A stretch of DNA of 64,000 nucleotides, taken from the IMG/VR virus record IMGVR_UViG_3300025154_001556; one strand, written 5' to 3'. Below are positions 39,377 to 62,248 of the stretch, one piece after another. Below the pieces are notes generated by a model that saw only the letters and a list, made by a program, of their open reading frames with translations, had not been told where the DNA came from and searched no databases. Position numbers and translations under genes: made by a program. Every line of letters starts with the position of its first letter. The stretch's first letter is position 1. Source of the stretch: a virus (taxonomy: Duplodnaviria > Caudoviricetes).

Positions 39377-39858
39377 TTATAAAAGCTTTACTTCTGTTGC
39401 CTGAATACCCTTTTCTGTATTCTTTAAAATAAAACTTACTGGTTGGCCGGCTTTAAGTGTTTTATAGCCGTCCATATCAATACTTGTAAAGTGGATAAAA
39501 TACTCTGCGTCTGGATTACCATCAATCAACACAAAGCCGTATCCGCGGTCATTACTAACATTTTTTTCGAGTTAGTTCGTTACACTAACCCCGCCTATGC
39601 AGGCTGCTTTATGTTTCCATAAAGAAAAGACTATATCAAAATCCTGTTAAGGATTCTCCCCATTTCGGACCACTTGGTCCTACGAGCCTTCGCTCTAGTC
39701 GTTGAACCTTCCTCTTACGAGGCTTGGCTGCTGATTATCTTCGACATTATTCGCTAAGATTTTCCAGCAATTAAAGGAGTTTCGATACATTGTTACCAAT
39801 GTAAAGGGCTCTACATAATGAACCATTTAACTGTTCCGTTAATTCTTTCTTCACTCAT
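39377..39858 (-). CDS. csp: Cold-shock domain protein, 72 aa after splicing: join(39822..39858, 39377..39558)
   Basis: Spliced product MSEERINGTVKWFSNDRGYGFVLIDGNPDAEYFIHFTSIDMDGYKTLKAGQPVSFILKNTEKGIQATEVKLL has RNP1 (RGYGFV) and RNP2 (YFIHF) motifs; GGAG RBS; missed by the ORF track. Confidence 0.93.
39559..39821 (-). ncRNA. Group I self-splicing intron (263 nt, no internal ORF; IA-like with P7.1/P7.2)
   Basis: 5' exon ends in U and intron ends in G. P1 pairs UAAAUGGU with IGS GCCCUUUA (terminal U.G wobble); P10 pairs UCAUUA with exon-2 UAAUGA. Core P AAUUGCUGGAAA, Q AAUCAGCAG, R UCAACGACUAGA, S GAUAUAGUCU. P2 UACAUUG-GUAA-CAAUGUA; P9 CUUUAUG-GAAA-CAUAAAG. Confidence 0.93.
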
Positions 39859-39915: not shown

Positions 39916-40359
39916 TTAACTTAAAAATACTTTTTTCTCTGCCTCTCTTCTATTTACCAAACCAGCAACTACCTTACCGCCGGCTTTTCTCCACAACAAG
40001 AAACTACTTGCTGCCCCTTCATAATCACCTATATTTAGTTTCCTTAATACAGTTGATTTTGAAAAATTACCTAAACCAATGTTATAAGCTAAACTAACCA
40101 AAGCATTAAATTGGTTTTGTGTTACTTTAATTTTTACAAACTCGTTAACACTTTCAGCAAAAGTCGCTACTACATGATTTAGTATTTCAGTAGCACGTTC
40201 TTTAGTTATAGGGGCGTCTGTTAACTTAACTTTTGTACCATCCTCGTAGTAAGTATTACCATAACCTATGGTAGGAATACCTGCTGGACATAGATAAGGC
40301 TTTGAACTAAATCCTTCAAATTTTTTTATTAAATCTAAACCTACTGTATCTATTTTCAT
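39916..40359 (-). CDS. GH24 lysozyme (endolysin)
   Basis: IKKFEG-x-PYLCPAGIPTIGYG catalytic E-x8-C-x5-T; NQFNALVSLAYNIG; GLVNRREAE. Confidence 0.92.
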   Translation of the reverse strand: MKIDTVGLDLIKKFEGFSSKPYLCPAGIPTIGYGNTYYEDGTKVKLTDAPITKERATEILNHVVATFAESVNEFVKIKVTQNQFNALVSLAYNIGLGNFSKSTVLRKLNIGDYEGAASSFLLWRKAGGKVVAGLVNRREAEKKVFLS

Positions 40360-48309: not shown

Positions 48310-49161
48310 TTAAAGCATAATAAGTGATTTTAATATATCTAACAAAGTCATTTTCTCATTTAAACCAATAGTTTTTAGATAATTTTCTCCAACTATCCAA
48401 CGTTCCTTTGAATAAAACCTATCTTTATATATTATTTTAACAAATACAATATTATCTGGGTATATCCTTATTATGTACATATCACCATCATCTAGTATAG
48501 TACTTTCCCTAAATGTGGTTTTACTTACTGTATCCCCTTGTTTAAAACTTTTAAATTCTTTTTCACAATAAGCTACTTTTTCTTGTTCAAATTTTAGATG
48601 CTGCTTGTAACTAAAATATTTAGCTGTTGTATTTGTTGTTGTAGGTAATATAAGCATAAAACTTATTATAGCTATCCAACCTTTAAAAGAAAGGCCTAAA
48701 ACCCATCGTTTAATCCTATATAAAATACGTTTATCGCTGAGTTTAGATACACTAGTAGTTGGTATAATAATATTGTCAGGAGATGCTTCTCCTCTTAGAT
48801 GTTTATTGGCTATAACTATAAATGCCCTAGCATCAGGAGGTTTTACCATAATCATTTCTCTTGGTACTTTATGAAATTCAACCAATTCACTTACTGTATC
48901 TTCTGGCAAGCTTCTAGATAATATAAGGCATTTATCAGGATCTGCACCACCTCTGCCCACAAGCTCTAAACCGCTTTCTTTATTTTCTAGTATTGTATCA
49001 ATGATATATAAGTCGTAGTCGTACCTCATCATACGTTCTCTGGCTTCTTTTAAACTACTAACTGAATGTACTACACAGTCGTATGGTGCCAGTAATCCTT
49101 TGTATAGTTGTATCATAGCTAAACTTTCTTCAGCTATCAGTACTGCCTTTTTATTGGCCAT
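48310..49161 (-). CDS. Atypical response-regulator receiver domain fused to a TM helix and C-terminal extracytoplasmic domain
   Basis: VLIAEE, DLYIID (phospho-Asp), MVKP; hydrophobic WIAIISFMLILP. Confidence 0.7.
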   Translation of the reverse strand: MANKKAVLIAEESLAMIQLYKGLLAPYDCVVHSVSSLKEARERMMRYDYDLYIIDTILENKESGLELVGRGGADPDKCLILSRSLPEDTVSELVEFHKVPREMIMVKPPDARAFIVIANKHLRGEASPDNIIIPTTSVSKLSDKRILYRIKRWVLGLSFKGWIAIISFMLILPTTTNTTAKYFSYKQHLKFEQEKVAYCEKEFKSFKQGDTVSKTTFRESTILDDGDMYIIRIYPDNIVFVKIIYKDRFYSKERWIVGENYLKTIGLNEKMTLLDILKSLIML

Positions 49162-49174
49162 AGTTATAACCCCG

Positions 49175-50251
49175 TTATTTAAATATAATATCTAAATCAT
49201 AATTACAGGCTTTTATAACCGCCAAACAAGCCTCTACGACTTTATCGTCGTATAGTTTACCAGAACCTTTTACTATTTCTTCAATGGCCACAGTAACACC
49301 CAAAGAGGCCCTATATGGTCTATGTGAAGCCATAGCCTCTACTACATCAGCTACACTGATTATTTTAGCTTCTATGGATATTTGGTCACCCCTTAAACCA
49401 TTAGGATAACCAGAACCATCTAGCCTTTCGTGATGTTGTAATACCATACGGGCTATTGGTGCTTCAAAAGGAATATCACTAATTATATTGTATCCTTCTA
49501 TGACATGTTTTTTTAATAATTTAAATTCTGTTTCACTTAATCTAGTTGGTTTAACTAATAACTCTTGCGGAACATAGAATTTACCTATATCATGGAGCAT
49601 ACCTGCCAGTTTTATATGTTCGATTTGGGATTCATCTAGGCCATAATACTCGGATATTTTTATTGCTAACGCCGTTACGCGTTTTTGGTGCCCAGCTGTG
49701 TATGGGTCACGTATCTCCATAGTTTTTGATAAAGCTTCAACAGTTTTGTATAAAACACTACTTAAATCTTTGTTAGCTACTGCTAGTTTTTCATTTGTTG
49801 CTGCTAGATTATCTGTTCTTTCTTTAACCAATTTTTCTAGTTGTTGTTGATACATCTGGTTATCTCTTACCAAGTCATGTTTTTCTAGGCATTGAGTTAC
49901 AGAATGTTTTAAAATTTCTAGTGTTATTGGTTTGGTTATAAAATCACAAGCACCTTTTCTTAAAGCATCTACCACAAACTCATTACAAGTGTTACCTGTT
50001 ATTATAATAATTTGTGATGGTGGATATAGTGCTTTTATTTTATCCATTAAATCTAAACCCATAGCATCAGGAAGACTTATGTCTAATAATACTATTGGTG
50101 GTGAGTATTTTTTAAAGGCGGCTATACCTTCAACTCCCTTAGTAGCATTAATTATATTGTCGAACCCAATTACAGATAACATTGTACTTATAACAGCCAA
50201 TATAGATTGATCATCATCTATTACAAGTATAGGTTCTTTTATTCTAGTCAT
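49175..50251 (-). CDS. Response regulator with HD-GYP cyclic-di-GMP phosphodiesterase domain (RpfG-like)
   Basis: REC: ILVIDDD, LLDISLP, ITG, FITKP. HD-GYP: RDPYTAGHQKRV, LHDIGK, QHHERLDGSGYP, VADVVEAM..HRPYR. Confidence 0.93.
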   Translation of the reverse strand: MTRIKEPILVIDDDQSILAVISTMLSVIGFDNIINATKGVEGIAAFKKYSPPIVLLDISLPDAMGLDLMDKIKALYPPSQIIIITGNTCNEFVVDALRKGACDFITKPITLEILKHSVTQCLEKHDLVRDNQMYQQQLEKLVKERTDNLAATNEKLAVANKDLSSVLYKTVEALSKTMEIRDPYTAGHQKRVTALAIKISEYYGLDESQIEHIKLAGMLHDIGKFYVPQELLVKPTRLSETEFKLLKKHVIEGYNIISDIPFEAPIARMVLQHHERLDGSGYPNGLRGDQISIEAKIISVADVVEAMASHRPYRASLGVTVAIEEIVKGSGKLYDDKVVEACLAVIKACNYDLDIIFK

Positions 50252-56994: not shown

Positions 56995-57753
56995 ATGAAA
57001 TCTATTAAATCAATCGTTGTAGCAGCAGTTATCATTCTTTCCCTCGTAGCTTGTAAACAAGAACCTGTTGAAGTAACTTCTGCCCCTGTGGTAGTTGGGA
57101 ACACATACACTACTGACGTTCTTCGTTATGAAGGAGAGATGAGGGATAACGTCCCCAATGGTAAAGGAGTTCTCACTTTCAGTTGGGGTGACAATTACGC
57201 TGGTGATGTGGTCAATGTTGTGCCCAATGGTGAAGGCGTTATGCGCTATGTGGATGGCTCCATCTACCGCGGGCAGTGGAAAGACGGTCTTCGTCACGGA
57301 CAAGGGCGTATGGAGACACCTGATGGTAACTGGTATGAGGGTTCCTGGGTAGCAGGTAGCAGACAAGGTCAAGGAACCATTAACCTGGATGGTGTTAAAC
57401 AGACCGGCCTCTTTGAGAATGACCAACCCAAAAAGGTGGTTGTTTTAGACACCAATGTTTGTGTGGAAGGTAATTGTCGTTCAGGTTATGGGGTTAAAAA
57501 CACCCCTGACGGCGTATACTATGGGGAGTTCGAAGATGGTGAGTTCTATGGACAAGGCACCTTTAAGTATAACAATGGTGACGTATTCAAAGGGAGCTTC
57601 ATCAAAGGTACTATGTTCGGCGCCGGGACACTCACCAGCACAAACAATCATTCTGTAACCATGGGTATTTGGGAGAAGGGTAAGTGGGTAGAAGGCAATC
57701 GTCGCTATGACGATGGTACTCCGGAATACATCCTTCTGAGACATATACTGTAA
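56995..57753 (+). CDS. MORN-repeat lipoprotein
   Basis: Lipobox LSLVAC; repeated Y.G.W.DG.RHGQG and Y.GEF.DG.F.GQG MORN units; C.EGNC..GYG. Confidence 0.88.
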   Translation: MKSIKSIVVAAVIILSLVACKQEPVEVTSAPVVVGNTYTTDVLRYEGEMRDNVPNGKGVLTFSWGDNYAGDVVNVVPNGEGVMRYVDGSIYRGQWKDGLRHGQGRMETPDGNWYEGSWVAGSRQGQGTINLDGVKQTGLFENDQPKKVVVLDTNVCVEGNCRSGYGVKNTPDGVYYGEFEDGEFYGQGTFKYNNGDVFKGSFIKGTMFGAGTLTSTNNHSVTMGIWEKGKWVEGNRRYDDGTPEYILLRHIL

Positions 57754-57764
57754 TTGCCTCTTTT

Positions 57765-57794
57765 CTCTGCCTATCCACTGTTAGGTAGGCAGAG
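57765..57794 (+). terminator. Hairpin after the MORN gene
   Basis: CTCTGCCTA-N12-TAGGCAGAG; no clear U-tract. Confidence 0.45.
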
Positions 57795-57823
57795 GTTAGG
57801 AGACAAGTACTTATCACCATATC

Positions 57824-58033
57824 ATGAAAAGGAGAAATATCATGACCGCACAGTTACGTTGGTTCGAACAGATTAAACAGGCAGTGGTAGTCACACAAGA
57901 TAAGGTATGTAGGTATCACGTGTGTACTATGGAGGAATTGGACGTGGCCATTAAGGTATTAGAAAGTATGTTGAACACCAAGGCTGTTATGGCTAAGTCT
58001 AAAAATCCTGATGTATTCATCTTTAACTTTTAG
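57824..58033 (+). CDS. Hypothetical protein
   Basis: About 63-69 aa; AAGGAG upstream of the ATG at 57842. Confidence 0.5.
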   Translation: MKRRNIMTAQLRWFEQIKQAVVVTQDKVCRYHVCTMEELDVAIKVLESMLNTKAVMAKSKNPDVFIFNF

Positions 58034-58048
58034 TACAACGGAGGATAT

Positions 58049-58336
58049 ATGGGACGTAAAACACTGATACATTGGACCATGCGTATATGTAAGGGGGTAA
58101 CTACCCCTACTTTATATGAGAAACAAGAGGTGTACGAGGTACCTTACTCGGGCACATATGACGCCAGACATATGAGAAACATGTTGAGAAATCGCCTAAT
58201 TTCCAACAAAGAGGAAGTGTATAAATTGGCAGAGTACGTCAAGGAAGTGCTGGTAGAGGAATGGGATAGGTCACTAACAATACGGGTGTGTGTTATTAAA
58301 CACCTCAACGATATTATAGGAGATAAGCATGTCTAA
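58049..58336 (+). CDS. Hypothetical protein
   Basis: 95 aa; GGAGG RBS. Confidence 0.55.
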   Translation: MGRKTLIHWTMRICKGVTTPTLYEKQEVYEVPYSGTYDARHMRNMLRNRLISNKEEVYKLAEYVKEVLVEEWDRSLTIRVCVIKHLNDIIGDKHV

Positions 58337-58499
58337 ACAACAAGGTGATACGTTGTTGATTTACCAAGACCTGTCTGATGGTAGATGGATAAGGGCTTAT
58401 TGCTGTTCCCCTGTATGTAGCTGCCCCCTCTACAAAAAGACTAAATGCGACAGCAAACAATGCCGTTTCTTCAAAGAGGAAGTTATCTACAAAAAATAA
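58329..58499 (+). CDS. Cys-rich small protein (56 aa)
   Basis: MSKQQG...CCSPVCSCP...C...C; AGGAG RBS; not in the track. Confidence 0.5.
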   Translation: MSKQQGDTLLIYQDLSDGRWIRAYCCSPVCSCPLYKKTKCDSKQCRFFKEEVIYKK

Positions 58500-58520
58500 G
58501 CAACCTGGGAGGGTAGACTT

Positions 58521-58730
58521 ATGAGCGCGTTCTTTATTACAATGTCAGAAGCTCCTGATGGGGGCTTTCAACCGGTTAAAGCAATAATGCTGCCTAATGG
58601 GAGAAGCTGCGTTGTAAGTAGAAGTCCCGTTACCACTCACTGCCCTAAGTTTGCCGAAGATATAGCAGAAGCTTGGGCAAAAGAAGAAGGGTTAGTCTAT
58701 AAAAAGTGTAAGGAGGTATCACATGTTTAA
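58521..58730 (+). CDS. Hypothetical protein
   Basis: 69 aa; GGAGG RBS. Confidence 0.55.
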   Translation: MSAFFITMSEAPDGGFQPVKAIMLPNGRSCVVSRSPVTTHCPKFAEDIAEAWAKEEGLVYKKCKEVSHV

Positions 58731-58953
58731 ACTCGACTCTCAGAACATACTGATTGGTGCGGTGATTGTTGCCACTATTTGGTTTATTAACTACCTGATT
58801 GGTGCAATACTCATCATTGCGGCGGCTTGTGTAATTGGCTTGTTTGTATTCAATTGGGTAGGTGGTCTTTTCCGTAAAGACACAACGAGACCCAAAGATA
58901 AGGCAAAAAACCCAACAGATTTGTCGGGGGCATTTAAGGAGACTAAGCCATGA
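58723..58953 (+). CDS. Small membrane protein
   Basis: Two hydrophobic helices; AAGGAGG RBS. Confidence 0.65.
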   Translation: MFKLDSQNILIGAVIVATIWFINYLIGAILIIAAACVIGLFVFNWVGGLFRKDTTRPKDKAKNPTDLSGAFKETKP

Positions 58954-59153
58954 AGATAGTAAAAGTGCTTTGTGCGTGGTGTATTGCTGAGGGGTTGAGT
59001 GCTACTCCTTTGCGTGAAATAGAGGTACCAGATGATGTCAAGGGAGAGTCACATGGTATATGTGATTACCATGCTGAACAGCTGATGGCTGAATCTAACG
59101 CGCTGGCAGCTAACAACAACAAGAAGAAGAAGGAGGTGATGCCTATGTGCTAA
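58950..59153 (+). CDS. Small CxxC/CxxH protein
   Basis: CAWC...SHGICDYHA; AAGGAG RBS. Confidence 0.6.
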   Translation: MKIVKVLCAWCIAEGLSATPLREIEVPDDVKGESHGICDYHAEQLMAESNALAANNNKKKKEVMPMC

Positions 59154-59159
59154 GCGTTA

Positions 59160-59248
59160 GGGTTTAAGTGAAGGGCAAACTTGTCGTAAGGCAAGGACGC
59201 AAAACTATGGGCCCTCATTATGAGGGCCGCCAAGTTACCAAACAAACC
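59160..59248 (+). promoter_or_regulatory. c-di-GMP-I (GEMM) riboswitch-like aptamer
   Basis: AAGGGCAAAC-UUGUC-GUAA-GGCAAG-GACGCAAAAC-UAUGG-GCCCUCA-UUA-UGAGGGC-CGCC-AAGUUACC. It shows the GGCAAA junction, a GNRA-capped P2, GACGCAAA, a P3 hairpin and the 3' GUUACC, then an SD and ATG at 59268. Confidence 0.8.
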
Positions 59249-59267
59249 GAATTATAGGAGAATTACC

Positions 59268-60242
59268 ATGAAGAAATCAATCGTTATTTCCGCAATCATT
59301 TCTCTTATTTCTACTCTTTCTATTTCATCAGCACAGGGCGAGCTCATCGATGGGCGCTACACTGTTCTGGATACCACCACCAACTACGAGTGGATGAAAC
59401 ATCCCTTCGTATACACTAACTGGTATGATGGTAAGGAACAGTGTGAAGACCTCGTGCTGGATGGTCATGATGACTGGGTTATGCCTTGGCCTGCCCATAT
59501 GAAAACCATCAAAGGCGTTATCCAGTACTTGGCCTACAACTATATGTTTTATCATACCATCAGGGAGTATTCAGCTACGGCGGACTACTCATACAACATT
59601 GATACTGGTGTTATGGGTGTTGTGTCCAAATACAATCTTGGAAACGTTCGTTGTATGCGCGATGCTTCGGCTGATATGGCTGAGGTTATTACCAGCGTAA
59701 CTATCCAGAAAACCGGTTACTACACTATGGCCACTACTATGGCTAATGTAACTGGTATGGTATCGGCATTTGTTGATGGTGTTATGGTTGCTTCTTACAA
59801 TACCGATTATATCAGCGGCCCTGTTGGTATTGGCAGCCTCGTAGCCGGCCAGAATCTGGAAATCACAGTAAATGGTTCAAAAGCGGAGGGAATTGAGGAG
59901 TTGGACTGGCAGAGTTGGAATATGACCTTTTCTGCCGGCGACATTGAAATCTATGTCGAAGACCCGCCCATGCCCACGAGTGGCGTACAGACAATGGTGG
60001 TAGAGGAAGAGGAGCTTCCCCCACCAGCAATCGTTAATGTAAAAGTTAACAAAGCACAGATACTCAACAGTAAGAACAAGAGTACTCTGACGTTGGTATT
60101 GGACGTTCCTGCGCAGATTACCCTGGAAGACGGACCTACCGATTTTGTGGTTTTACTGTACACAAATGGTTCGGATACTGCTTACATGGGTAATACCGAA
60201 ATGAGCCATAAGGGTAAAGGGAATATCATTTCCAATAAGTAG
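59268..60242 (+). CDS. Secreted protein with DUF1566 (Lcl C-terminal)-like domain
   Basis: Signal peptide MKKSIVISAII...AQG; TVLDTTTNYEWMK, WYDGKEQCEDL.LDGHDDWVMP, VRCMR. True start after AGGAG at 59268. Confidence 0.75.
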   Translation: MKKSIVISAIISLISTLSISSAQGELIDGRYTVLDTTTNYEWMKHPFVYTNWYDGKEQCEDLVLDGHDDWVMPWPAHMKTIKGVIQYLAYNYMFYHTIREYSATADYSYNIDTGVMGVVSKYNLGNVRCMRDASADMAEVITSVTIQKTGYYTMATTMANVTGMVSAFVDGVMVASYNTDYISGPVGIGSLVAGQNLEITVNGSKAEGIEELDWQSWNMTFSAGDIEIYVEDPPMPTSGVQTMVVEEEELPPPAIVNVKVNKAQILNSKNKSTLTLVLDVPAQITLEDGPTDFVVLLYTNGSDTAYMGNTEMSHKGKGNIISNK

Positions 60243-60250
60243 TCTAATCA

Positions 60251-60274
60251 AGGGGCATCCTGCTGGGTGCCCCT
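60251..60274 (+). terminator. Hairpin after the DUF1566 gene
   Basis: AGGGGCATCC-TGCT-GGGTGCCCCT; weak U-tract. Confidence 0.5.
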
Positions 60275-60294
60275 ATACCCAACGAGGTAACGTT

Positions 60295-60696
60295 ATGACA
60301 GGACACTATCAACGCGGCATATATCACACGAATCGTGGATTTGTACATGTGTACAATATCGGCAATAAGTGGTTATACAAACGCATATCCTTATCCTGTT
60401 TCACTGATGTTGTAGAAGAATTGACACCGGATACTTGGAATGTTTGTTCCGAAGTTACAGATTTGAAAGTACTGGCCAATTTCACCCGGCCGTCAGATAA
60501 GAGCAACACGTTCCGTATCTGTGACGGAACCAACACTTGTCTAAGGGATTGTTCCGCAAAGAATATTCCAAATTCAAGCGTTTGGATGTCCACATCAGTA
60601 GTAAATGACCCATGCAGTTGTGTACACTCGGATCATATAGACGGAGAAAAACATGACTGTACATATACAACAGTATACGCCAGATTAAGGGTCTAA
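60295..60696 (+). CDS. Hypothetical protein
   Basis: 133 aa; GAGG RBS. N-terminal GHY..G.Y......V......KW.Y.R pattern is shared with the 62905 protein. Confidence 0.55.
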   Translation: MTGHYQRGIYHTNRGFVHVYNIGNKWLYKRISLSCFTDVVEELTPDTWNVCSEVTDLKVLANFTRPSDKSNTFRICDGTNTCLRDCSAKNIPNSSVWMSTSVVNDPCSCVHSDHIDGEKHDCTYTTVYARLRV

Positions 60697-60779
60697 CAAA
60701 TCTTCCTGCTCATCAGTAATAGATGAGCGGGGCTGAGTTGTTAAGCCCAACCATAATCCCTAAACTACGGAGGAGACCC

Positions 60780-60908
60780 ATGAAACCAAAGTGTGGCTGT
60801 AACAAAGAGAAGATGTGTGATAGATGTTATGTTGTGCTGATGCTGAAAGTAATTACGGCAATTGTCAGGCAACGTAAAAAGAATAACAATAATAACGAGT
60901 CTAAATAA
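60780..60908 (+). CDS. Small Cys-rich protein (42 aa)
   Basis: Start MKPKCGC after GGAGGAG. Confidence 0.5.
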   Translation: MKPKCGCNKEKMCDRCYVVLMLKVITAIVRQRKKNNNNNESK

Positions 60909-60932
60909 CCTATACACTTGTGGAGGTGTAAT

Positions 60933-61280
60933 ATGTTGGAAAATAAATGTAGCATTATCGAAAATGGTGTGTTGTGTGGCGAACCCGTGCTCACAGACGG
61001 TGCTTGTTATGACCACTGTGTTCCCTGTCTCATTTGTGGTGACCCCATCTCTAAACTTAGAGAGGGGCGTGTATGTGAATTGTGCGCACATATCTGTGAA
61101 GTGTGCGCATATATCTCAGTACAGCATATTAAAGTATATGTATGGCCTGACGGTACGTGGCTGTATGCGCATGAGTATAACGATGTTGAGGATGCCTGGC
61201 GGGGTGATGATTACGCCATCAAATACTTCTCTGGGGATTCTACGGACGAGGAAGTTAATGAGGCAGTATTGTCAAAGTAA
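60933..61280 (+). CDS. Cys-rich hypothetical protein
   Basis: Start MLENKC after GGAGG; several CxxC. Confidence 0.6.
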   Translation: MLENKCSIIENGVLCGEPVLTDGACYDHCVPCLICGDPISKLREGRVCELCAHICEVCAYISVQHIKVYVWPDGTWLYAHEYNDVEDAWRGDDYAIKYFSGDSTDEEVNEAVLSK

Positions 61281-61294
61281 ACACTTGTGGAGGT

Positions 61295-62248
61295 GTGCTT
61301 ATGGATATTTATGAAAGGATAACTACCAGGCTTGATGGCTTCTTCAAAAAGGGTATGAAGAGGCATTCCTTTGTTGACAAACAACAACATCAGTTGGCCA
61401 GAATCAACGCCTCAAAGATTTCAAGGGCGCTTAACTCGCTGCCGATGTACTTTGTTAACATCTACGATGAATTGGTAAGTCCTACATTTAGGGAACACGC
61501 TGCTAAAATATCCGAATACGTAAAGGAGAATAATATTAAAATTGATGAAGTATACGATGCATTTAGGGTCCCTTACAATGATTTTGTTCTTTGCGACGGC
61601 GTGGACCTTTATATCGTAAGTAGTCCCGCTAATCTTGTATTTAACATGTTGGTATTTACACCATATATTGGTGAAGAACAGCCTTATTTGGGCCTGTACA
61701 TTGAGGCCAATCTTAATACCGATATGTGGAAGGTAAAAGAAATGGTACTGTTAACCCATAACGCGTTACTTCCTAAAAAGGACATTTCGGCAGTAACATA
61801 TGATGATTTACGTAAAATGTGTGACAGACTCTGCGTCGAGAAGTTACCAGACCTGTTTCCTCGTGTGGGTCAGGTCATTCATAATTTCATAATTTGTTAT
61901 GTATTTAGTAAGTTTGAAGGCGAGTACACCGATGTTAAGAAGGTTACTCCTGGTGTTAAGCCTATTAGTAGTAGGCCTAATGTGTTCAGAGAAATAGATA
62001 TTAACCTCAACCATACAAAGTTTATTATGGACCGCAAGGCACAACGTAAGGGACACAAACTCACACATCAAAGTGATATGCCCAGAATGTTGAAGTACCT
62101 GCGGCATGAGCGGTATAGCCAGAAAGGTACACTGCCTGTACAGTATGATATTCAAGGCAAGCCCTACTACTACACTGTTGAGGTTGACCCGTTCACCAGA
62201 GGAAAAGAGCTGCCCAGGAAAGAAGACAGTATCAAATATAAACTGTAA
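61295..62248 (+). CDS. Hypothetical protein (317 aa)
   Basis: Long ORF with GGAGG RBS; no motif recognised. Confidence 0.7.
   Translation: MLMDIYERITTRLDGFFKKGMKRHSFVDKQQHQLARINASKISRALNSLPMYFVNIYDELVSPTFREHAAKISEYVKENNIKIDEVYDAFRVPYNDFVLCDGVDLYIVSSPANLVFNMLVFTPYIGEEQPYLGLYIEANLNTDMWKVKEMVLLTHNALLPKKDISAVTYDDLRKMCDRLCVEKLPDLFPRVGQVIHNFIICYVFSKFEGEYTDVKKVTPGVKPISSRPNVFREIDINLNHTKFIMDRKAQRKGHKLTHQSDMPRMLKYLRHERYSQKGTLPVQYDIQGKPYYYTVEVDPFTRGKELPRKEDSIKYKL

Follow-up and report, generated by a model that had tools for sequence, protein, structure and literature searches.

Does the 64,000-nucleotide stretch of DNA that forms IMG/VR virus record IMGVR_UViG_3300025154_001556 (hereafter, the window) encode an RNA with which a tailed phage reads the cyclic di-GMP (c-di-GMP) signal of its host, and is this reading coupled to the HD-GYP phosphodiesterase predicted in the same window? 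The question arises from an earlier note, in which a GEMM-like aptamer was described in the gap ahead of a gene for a secreted DUF1566-like protein, and a circuit composed of a c-di-GMP sensor and a c-di-GMP eraser was proposed. Our analysis makes it likely that this phage, of about 237 kb, carries a functional riboswitch of the canonical c-di-GMP-I (GEMM-I) class, which would respond to c-di-GMP and control, at the level of translation, the expression of a secreted lectin-like protein. The class of this riboswitch is known and its membership is well supported; the unusual feature is its carrier.

A c-di-GMP-I aptamer fills the gap between two phage genes

The Rfam search (cmscan), which was reproduced locally, returned a single riboswitch match in the window, at positions 59165-59243 of the plus strand, with a score of 66.6 bits (E = 1.5e-13) and with the model covered completely, from position 1 to 80. 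The score exceeds the gathering score of this model (RF03167), which is 59; the proposed GEMM-like aptamer therefore stood up to a covariance-model search. It occupies the space that extends from the stop codon at 59151-59153 to the Shine-Dalgarno (SD) sequence AGGAG at 59256-59260 and the ATG at 59268. The helices and the remaining features of the locus are listed in Table 1.

When the aptamer was aligned to the model consensus, the pocket bases G20, A47, and C92 of the Vibrio cholerae Vc2 aptamer corresponded to G59174, A59201, and C59238. The G equivalent to G20, which lies in AAGGGCAAAC and had been read correctly in the earlier note, is present in all five phage variants, whereas the GEMM-Ib type carries A20. 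The interhelical pair C44-G83 is represented by C59198, the C of GAC, and G59229, the G of the CG bulge of P2; both bases are invariant across the variants, and the adjacent bulge base is C or A. In this class, G20 pairs with G-alpha and C92 with G-beta of the ligand, which is also contacted by A47 (PMC5888326, PMC4744006), and the C44-G83 pair is universal (PMC4744006).

The best-ranked model for the window aptamer, RF03167, is that of the c-di-GMP-I-GGC variant. The designation GGC reportedly refers to the identities at positions 20, 47, and 92. The aptamer resembles this variant in its overall length and short P2; however, the two diagnostic G residues are replaced by A, so that GACGCA and UAC are found in place of the consensus GACGCG and UGC. 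The A residues at these positions, after GACGC and before C92, are the canonical c-di-GMP-I bases, and the GGC identity was ruled out. The score of the window copy on the canonical model RF01051 (gathering score, 35) is masked by competition within clan CL00126; in agreement with the assignment, the copy of a sister phage reaches 75.1 bits on RF01051, compared with 66.3 bits on RF03167. In addition, a different viral aptamer with the canonical GGACGCAAA likewise ranks RF03167 first, which indicates that this label reflects the overall shape and not the pocket. On the basis of the pocket bases, the C44-G83 pair, the RF01051 score of the sister copy, and the precedent of the GGACGCAAA aptamer, the window element is, as judged from its sequence, a c-di-GMP-I aptamer of the canonical type in which P2 is short, neither a pocket variant nor an A20 type recognizing cyclic GMP-AMP (cGAMP), and its ligand would be c-di-GMP. 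This agrees with the G20-bearing, c-di-GMP-type GEMM-I aptamer that had been postulated.

Conservation of the fold among related phages

The window is phage DNA, whose minus strand encodes the large terminase, the portal, the major head protein, and PhoH. Protein clusters assign its genes to a contig of 236,830 bp, that is, a tailed phage of approximately 237 kb, which also carries virion-type RNA polymerase genes. When positions 57000-62000 were compared with 50,697 GenBank phages by BLAST, nothing matched in either the near or the distant mode; for this reason, relatives were sought through proteins. Homologues of the protein encoded downstream of the aptamer were found on a 234-kb IMG/VR contig (the sister phage, 81% identity), on two short contigs (78-81%), and in a distant phage (58%). 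The DNA of the window recurs in metagenomes of groundwater and soil from 11 studies.

The aptamer was identified in the sister phage (L001), in an ENA contig (L006), in two JGI contigs (L135 and L136), and as an incomplete copy in L005. Covariation was evaluated on the four full-length variants from the window, L001, L006, and L136, which come from different metagenomes. In this set 91.7% of the paired cells could form pairs, versus 29-48% when the partners were slid, and the value rose to 100% for the cells of P1a, P1b, and P2. Changes on both sides were observed in four of the six P1b pairs (CUUGUC/GGCAAG, CUCGUC/GGCGAG, and CCCGGA/UCCGGG) and in none outside P1b, and the covariation score was matched by 4 of 500 shuffles. 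The tetraloops are GUAA or GCAA, both of the GNRA type. The genes adjoining the aptamer are about 80% identical among the variants, and the flanks and the ribosome-binding site (RBS) are invariant although the adjacent coding sequence diverges. No close bacterial counterpart of the aptamer, which could have given a clue to the host, was found among 137 pattern-matched aptamers, and none of the 205 open reading frames (ORFs) downstream of these, a small and biased sample, matched the DUF1566 family that would represent a bacterial version of this cassette.

Flanking sequences and expression platform

The aptamer lies 12 nt from the SD, and the segment GGUUU (59161-59165), which overlaps the invariant 5' flank, is likely the true 5' strand of P1. 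Two registers are available to it, with AAACC (59244-59248) or with AAAC (59240-59243), in a helix whose invariant flanks allow no support from covariation. Given that the stop codon of a 67-residue ORF is located 11 nt ahead of the aptamer, the riboswitch is internal to a run of small plus-strand genes and is not a classical 5' leader. The upstream frame enters the P1 flank in L006 and L136, so that folding may also be influenced by ribosomes that terminate there. The 67-residue ORF ends in codons (GTG ATG CCT ATG) whose nucleotides are conserved, including in the relative without the riboswitch.

The terminator scan found no intrinsic terminator on the plus strand from 59243 to the start of the gene, and this type of expression platform was excluded. 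Since, in addition, the RBS directly abuts the aptamer, control would most likely be exerted at translation initiation. We propose that the riboswitch reads c-di-GMP made by the host and that the ligand would stabilize the closure of the unusual P1 (GGUUU with AAACC or AAAC), altering the single-stranded A/C-rich region that precedes the SD and setting in this way the output of the Sec-secreted, two-module lectin-like protein (DUF1566/Lcl_C and jelly-roll). The host origin of the c-di-GMP is suggested by the fact that the sister phage encodes no GGDEF cyclase.

Three alternative pairings were considered and discarded. The pairing of the SD with UUUCC (59287-59291) in the coding segment, predicted in the minimum free energy structure, is not conserved in L006, L136, and L005. 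An anti-SD formed by the 5' arm and loop of P2 (CUCAUUAUG with UAUAGGAG) shows -8.5 to -10.4 kcal/mol and one co-change from A-U to G-C; it was dismissed because a far more stable local hairpin must be opened and its probability in the ensemble is near zero. An extended P1, in which CCUAU (59143-47) would pair with AUAGG (59254-58), is disrupted in L001 and L006. At the other end of the unit, a GC-rich stem-loop of 9 bp (GGGGCA...UGCCCC) without a U tract is present at 60252-60273 of the plus strand, directly after the stop codon of the controlled gene; it was not called by the terminator scan, and it may be the 3' end of the unit, a terminator for a phage polymerase, or an mRNA stabilizer.

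The controlled gene and its product

The start codon of the controlled gene is at 59268 and not at 59269. The product comprises a signal peptide (residues 1-23) of the Sec type (MKKSIVISAIISLISTLSISSAQG, without a lipobox), a DUF1566/Lcl_C-like module (approximately 25-135), a jelly-roll beta-sandwich (approximately 140-232), and a tail predicted with low confidence. A phmmer search gave 339 matches, chiefly to DUF1566-type repeats of multi-repeat proteins over residues 25-140; the precomputed annotation of its cluster is PF07603, and its fold matches in the AlphaFold Database are DUF1566 proteins. Residues 140-232 form a confident beta-sandwich in the AlphaFold model, with weak fold similarity (E of about 2e-3) to LecB-type lectins, BclA/C1q-like domains, and CBM6/35 modules. 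PHROGs returned nothing for the gene or for its neighbors. According to these models, a secreted glycan-binding protein is a reasonable, albeit unproven, reading of the product. This reading agrees with the composition of GEMM regulons, which typically include genes for adhesins and lectins, such as Vc1-GbpA (PMC4744006). The secreted DUF1566-like nature of the gene, already proposed from its ORF, was thus borne out by the signal peptide, a match to Lcl_C below the cut-off, the cluster annotation, and the fold matches; the designation as a surface protein and the relation with the biofilm state of the host were conjecture.

Phosphodiesterase, receiver proteins, and sensor kinase

The REC-HD-GYP gene indicated at 49175-50251 proved to be intact. 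Its product, composed of a receiver (REC) and an HD-GYP domain, matches HD_5 (PF13487; 2.8e-39, 135 bits) and Response_reg (6.6e-22, 78 bits) in Pfam, and conserves both catalytic motifs (HDIGK and HHERLDGSGYP) and the receiver residues (DD12-13, the acceptor Asp of LLD, the T of ITG, and the K of TKP). Its solved relatives, aligned across the motifs, include V-cGAP3 (5z7c, 1e-34), a phosphodiesterase specific for 3'3'-cGAMP, and PmGH (4mcw, 1.5e-32), which is specific for c-di-GMP. Because the two score alike, the substrate may be either c-di-GMP or cGAMP; the role of c-di-GMP eraser assigned to the enzyme in the earlier note is weakened by the fact that the nearest solved relative, 5z7c, about level with 4mcw, degrades 3'3'-cGAMP.

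The gene for a second receiver protein, provided with one membrane helix (REC-TM), always follows the HD-GYP gene, and this pair is kept in four phage lineages, near PhoH and ClpP. In the receiver of REC-TM, the acidic pair DD is replaced by EE. Its Response_reg match is of 29 bits, slightly below the cut-off. The protein could act as a phosphate sink or relay. The REC-HD-GYP/REC-TM pair is also present in the lineage with 58% identity, where the DUF1566 gene lacks an aptamer, and in a second pair-bearing lineage a search within 21 kb revealed none. The conservation of the pair in relatives without an aptamer indicates that neither the riboswitch nor the HD-GYP protein needs the other, which weakens the case for a circuit. 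Among the related phages, in which the earlier note had proposed to look for the co-occurrence of the aptamer with HD-GYP, the sister phage has both.

Exactly three receiver proteins are encoded in the sister genome: REC-HD-GYP, REC-TM, and a hybrid histidine kinase of 1207 residues, with SBP_bac_3, a CxxCH motif (CKNCH), PAS, GAF, HATPase_c, and REC. No histidine phosphotransfer (HPt) domain was detected in the kinase with Pfam. The same genome contains one aptamer and no GGDEF, EAL, or PilZ domain. The kinase of the window genome (P0128) has 1205 residues, is encoded outside the window, and is 69% identical to that of the sister; the longest contig of its cluster is that of 236,830 bp, as for the proteins of the window itself, and it adjoins an intein-bearing gene. 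Genes for two DNA methylases and for an HD protein lie beside the kinase gene in the sister phage, and in a 308-kb relative a shorter, cytoplasmic kinase of 772 residues is found with the synteny preserved. The label of P0128 in NCBI is 'MAG TPA: response regulator [Patescibacteria group bacterium]'; the phage contig thus appears to have been assigned to a genome of the Candidate Phyla Radiation, most likely through an error of binning, and the label is not a reliable indication of the host. The set of signaling proteins suggests that this phage lineage probably lowers the levels of cyclic dinucleotides under its own sensory control.

Table 1. Features of the riboswitch locus and of the signaling genes (coordinates refer to the window unless a contig is given; aa, residues)
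Feature	Position	Strand	Basis
c-di-GMP-I (GEMM-I) aptamer	59165..59243	+	RF03167 match, RF01051 score of the sister copy, and covariation on four variants
P1a	G59175-C59200, C59176-G59199	+	part of aptamer
P1b, capped by a GUAA tetraloop	59180-59185 with 59190-59195	+	part of aptamer
P2	59203-59216 with 59222-59236	+	part of aptamer
Invariant 5' flank, GCGUUAGGGUU	59154..59164	+	identical in all variants; upstream coding sequence diverges
Invariant A/C-rich linker from aptamer to SD, AAACCGAAUUAU	59244..59255	+	alignment; unpaired in unconstrained folding
SD AGGAG (59256-59260) and start ATG (59268-59270)	59256..59270	+	sequence; conserved in variants
Cys/His-rich ORF (CAWC...CDYH) with Lys-rich tail, 67 aa	58950..59153	+	stop 11 nt ahead of the aptamer
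Controlled gene, Sec-secreted protein, 324 aa	59268..60242	+	ORF, Pfam, and fold searches
REC-HD-GYP phosphodiesterase (predicted), 358 aa	49175..50251	-	HD_5, Response_reg, motifs, and PDB matches
REC-TM protein, 283 aa: receiver, one membrane helix, and C-terminal domain of ~110 aa outside	48310..49161	-	Pfam and sequence
Hybrid kinase of the sister phage, 1207 aa	L140:5684-9307 = G001:C1:19683-23306	-	receiver-domain search of the sister genome

Evaluation of the alternative explanations

Several observations weigh against a functional riboswitch that controls a lectin-like gene. With only four full variants, all close relatives of one another, the statistics of covariation are thin, and we take covariation as supportive but not decisive. 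The P1 helix drawn as in Rfam is only 33% paired, that is, mostly unpaired, in the phage variants, and among the candidates folded there was no alternative pairing, both stable and conserved, that would mask or free the SD. In the 58%-identity lineage the gene and its signal peptide are kept behind an AT-rich spacer of 75 nt without an aptamer. With regard to the product, the Pfam match to Lcl_C/DUF1566 (PF07603) reaches 25.8 bits (E = 1.4e-5), under the curated cut-off of 34.9, and the AlphaFold model is mediocre, with a predicted local distance difference test score of 59.6. Finally, the 18 sequencing runs that contain the complete stretch, and one more with about one fifth of it, are DNA metagenomes, and the sole run that could be RNA contains 6% of its words. 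If the aptamer were a passenger, captured with host DNA and devoid of a regulatory role in the phage, its absence from a related phage and the lack of an expression platform definable from the candidate pairings and the terminator scan would be accounted for; the compensatory changes, the invariance of the pocket and flanks next to genes that are about 80% identical, and the fact that nothing close to it appeared among the 137 pattern-matched aptamers make this explanation extremely unlikely. A different ligand, whether 3'3'-cGAMP (the case of GEMM-Ib), the two dinucleotides alike, or that of the GGC class, could be suspected from the first rank of RF03167 and from the Desulfobacterota and Desulfuromonadales proteins that figure among the homologues of the kinase and of the HD-GYP protein, as these bacteria use cGAMP riboswitches. 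We regard this as very unlikely, given G20 instead of A20, the A at both GGC-diagnostic positions, the 75.1 bits of the sister copy on RF01051, and the fact that a canonical GGACGCAAA aptamer also has RF03167 as its top model. A canonical c-di-GMP-I riboswitch acting on translation is consequently the reading that we favor.

As for the relation between this riboswitch and the phosphodiesterase, two explanations compete. In the closed circuit, the kinase would sense an external or redox cue and phosphorylate REC-HD-GYP, the c-di-GMP of the host would drop, and the riboswitch would time or gate the synthesis of the lectin-like protein. All these parts are found together in one genome and again in that of the sister, where the cyclase, EAL, and PilZ are missing and the only receivers that accompany the kinase are REC-HD-GYP and REC-TM; moreover, the kinase is syntenic in a third, 308-kb relative. 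The loci are, however, dispersed: the HD-GYP gene belongs to another gene block, located 9 kb from the riboswitch and on the opposite strand, and the kinase gene is outside the window. The HD-GYP/REC-TM pair also occurs in lineages whose DUF1566 gene has no aptamer, the kinase has no HPt domain in Pfam, and the HD-GYP relatives specific for cGAMP and for c-di-GMP score alike. We consider this explanation plausible but less likely than not, and its most specific version, in which a kinase sensing heme and solutes drives an HD-GYP protein that erases host c-di-GMP while the riboswitch reads the resulting level and gates a glycan-binding protein, unlikely. The other explanation, to which we also give only tentative credit, holds that the two elements have unrelated functions, REC-HD-GYP being a counter-defense directed against the cyclic nucleotides of the cyclic-oligonucleotide-based anti-phage signaling system (CBASS) or of type III CRISPR, or against 3'3'-cGAMP, and the riboswitch reading the host c-di-GMP independently. 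It agrees with the interpretation of HD-GYP across groups of jumbo phages as a counter to nucleotide-based defense (Iyer et al. 2021, PMC7824862), with the specificity of the top solved relative, V-cGAP3 (5z7c, 1e-34), and with the retention of HD-GYP where the riboswitch is missing; but the c-di-GMP-specific PmGH (4mcw, 1.5e-32) is nearly equal, and gating by a receiver together with a phage sensor kinase recalls RpfG-like signaling more than it does a constitutively active sponge or nuclease for nucleotides. What the sequences show is the aptamer with its pocket residues, conservation, and covariation, its place in the genome, and the set of genes; the ligand, the control of translation, a transfer of phosphate from the kinase to the HD-GYP protein, and any feedback are inferred. 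These findings are compatible with a phage that reads the c-di-GMP of its host and also resets it. The riboswitch would have been added later, in one sub-lineage, as an optional layer over an older, RpfC/RpfG-like module whose output degrades a cyclic dinucleotide, and would not be its obligate partner.

Comparison with known systems

The aptamer shares with Vc2 (tfoY leader) and Vc1 (gbpA leader) of V. cholerae the three-helix fold, G20/A47/C92, the C44-G83 pair, and the GNRA tetraloop of P1b, and with Vc1-GbpA a secreted product of the glycan-binding or adhesin type. In contrast to both, it has a short P2, a P1 that departs from the Rfam model, a phage as its carrier, a location between two ORFs and not in a long 5' leader, and no recognizable expression platform. 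Riboswitches are rare in phages, and c-di-GMP-I aptamers have been cited in Clostridioides difficile prophages (McCown et al. 2017, PMC5473149). Those of the phiCD119 type also place such an aptamer on phage DNA (Sudarsan 2008, as cited in PMC5473149); those phages are temperate, have a genome of about 50 kb, and infect a Firmicute, whereas the phage studied here has about 237 kb, comes from groundwater communities, and encodes its own kinase and HD-GYP protein.

The signaling proteins recall RpfC/RpfG of Xanthomonas, in which a hybrid kinase with a C-terminal receiver is also combined with a motif-intact REC-HD-GYP; the phage set differs in its dispersed genes, the absence of a detectable HPt, the periplasmic SBP_bac_3, CxxCH, PAS, and GAF sensor, and the additional REC-TM. 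HD-GYP proteins were reported in phages of more than 200 kb (Iyer, Anantharaman, Krishnan, Burroughs, Aravind 2021, PMC7824862), where they were interpreted as counter-defense and a riboswitch is never mentioned; the enzyme of the window is, by comparison, gated by a receiver, and the genome that encodes it also contains a c-di-GMP reader. Both the HD-GYP proteins of jumbo phages and the c-di-GMP riboswitches of prophages are thus already published, separately. Our literature search found no paper that pairs a phage HD-GYP with a c-di-GMP riboswitch, in line with the novelty attributed to this pairing in the earlier note. What is new is that this phage family encodes a hybrid sensor histidine kinase of 1205 residues alongside the riboswitch and REC-HD-GYP, with no cyclase in the sister genome.

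A conserved riboswitch in a large environmental phage would mean that viruses can read a lifestyle messenger directly by means of an RNA, and a sensor kinase with a receiver-gated HD-GYP, in the absence of a cyclase, offers a concrete and testable case of viral manipulation of c-di-GMP. If the parts are linked, they would constitute a viral signaling pathway instead of a single auxiliary gene; if the circuit is true, the phage would hold a self-contained second-messenger pathway, minus the cyclase, with which it measures and rewrites the sessile or motile state of its host during infection. In addition, this aptamer, which is natural, short, and unusual in its P1, should be useful for work on the mechanism of riboswitches.

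Additional observations

Canonical c-di-GMP-I aptamers were also found on three other IMG/VR sequences of 41-44 kb (L137, L138, and L139, from G002-G004), two of them proviruses, which have no HD-GYP; one of the three holds two aptamers separated by about 490 nt, with about 88 bits each. The sister phage contains an intergenic pistol ribozyme (RF02679, 65.3 bits) at L001:8469-8538 of the plus strand, about 1.4 kb upstream of the riboswitch, and none was found in the equivalent region of the window, even at an E of 0.1. The second of the two Rfam matches in the window is a group I intron (model RF00028, with 88.2 bits and E = 3.5e-21) at 39607-39830 of the minus strand, just downstream of an ORF of 147 residues (39916-40359).

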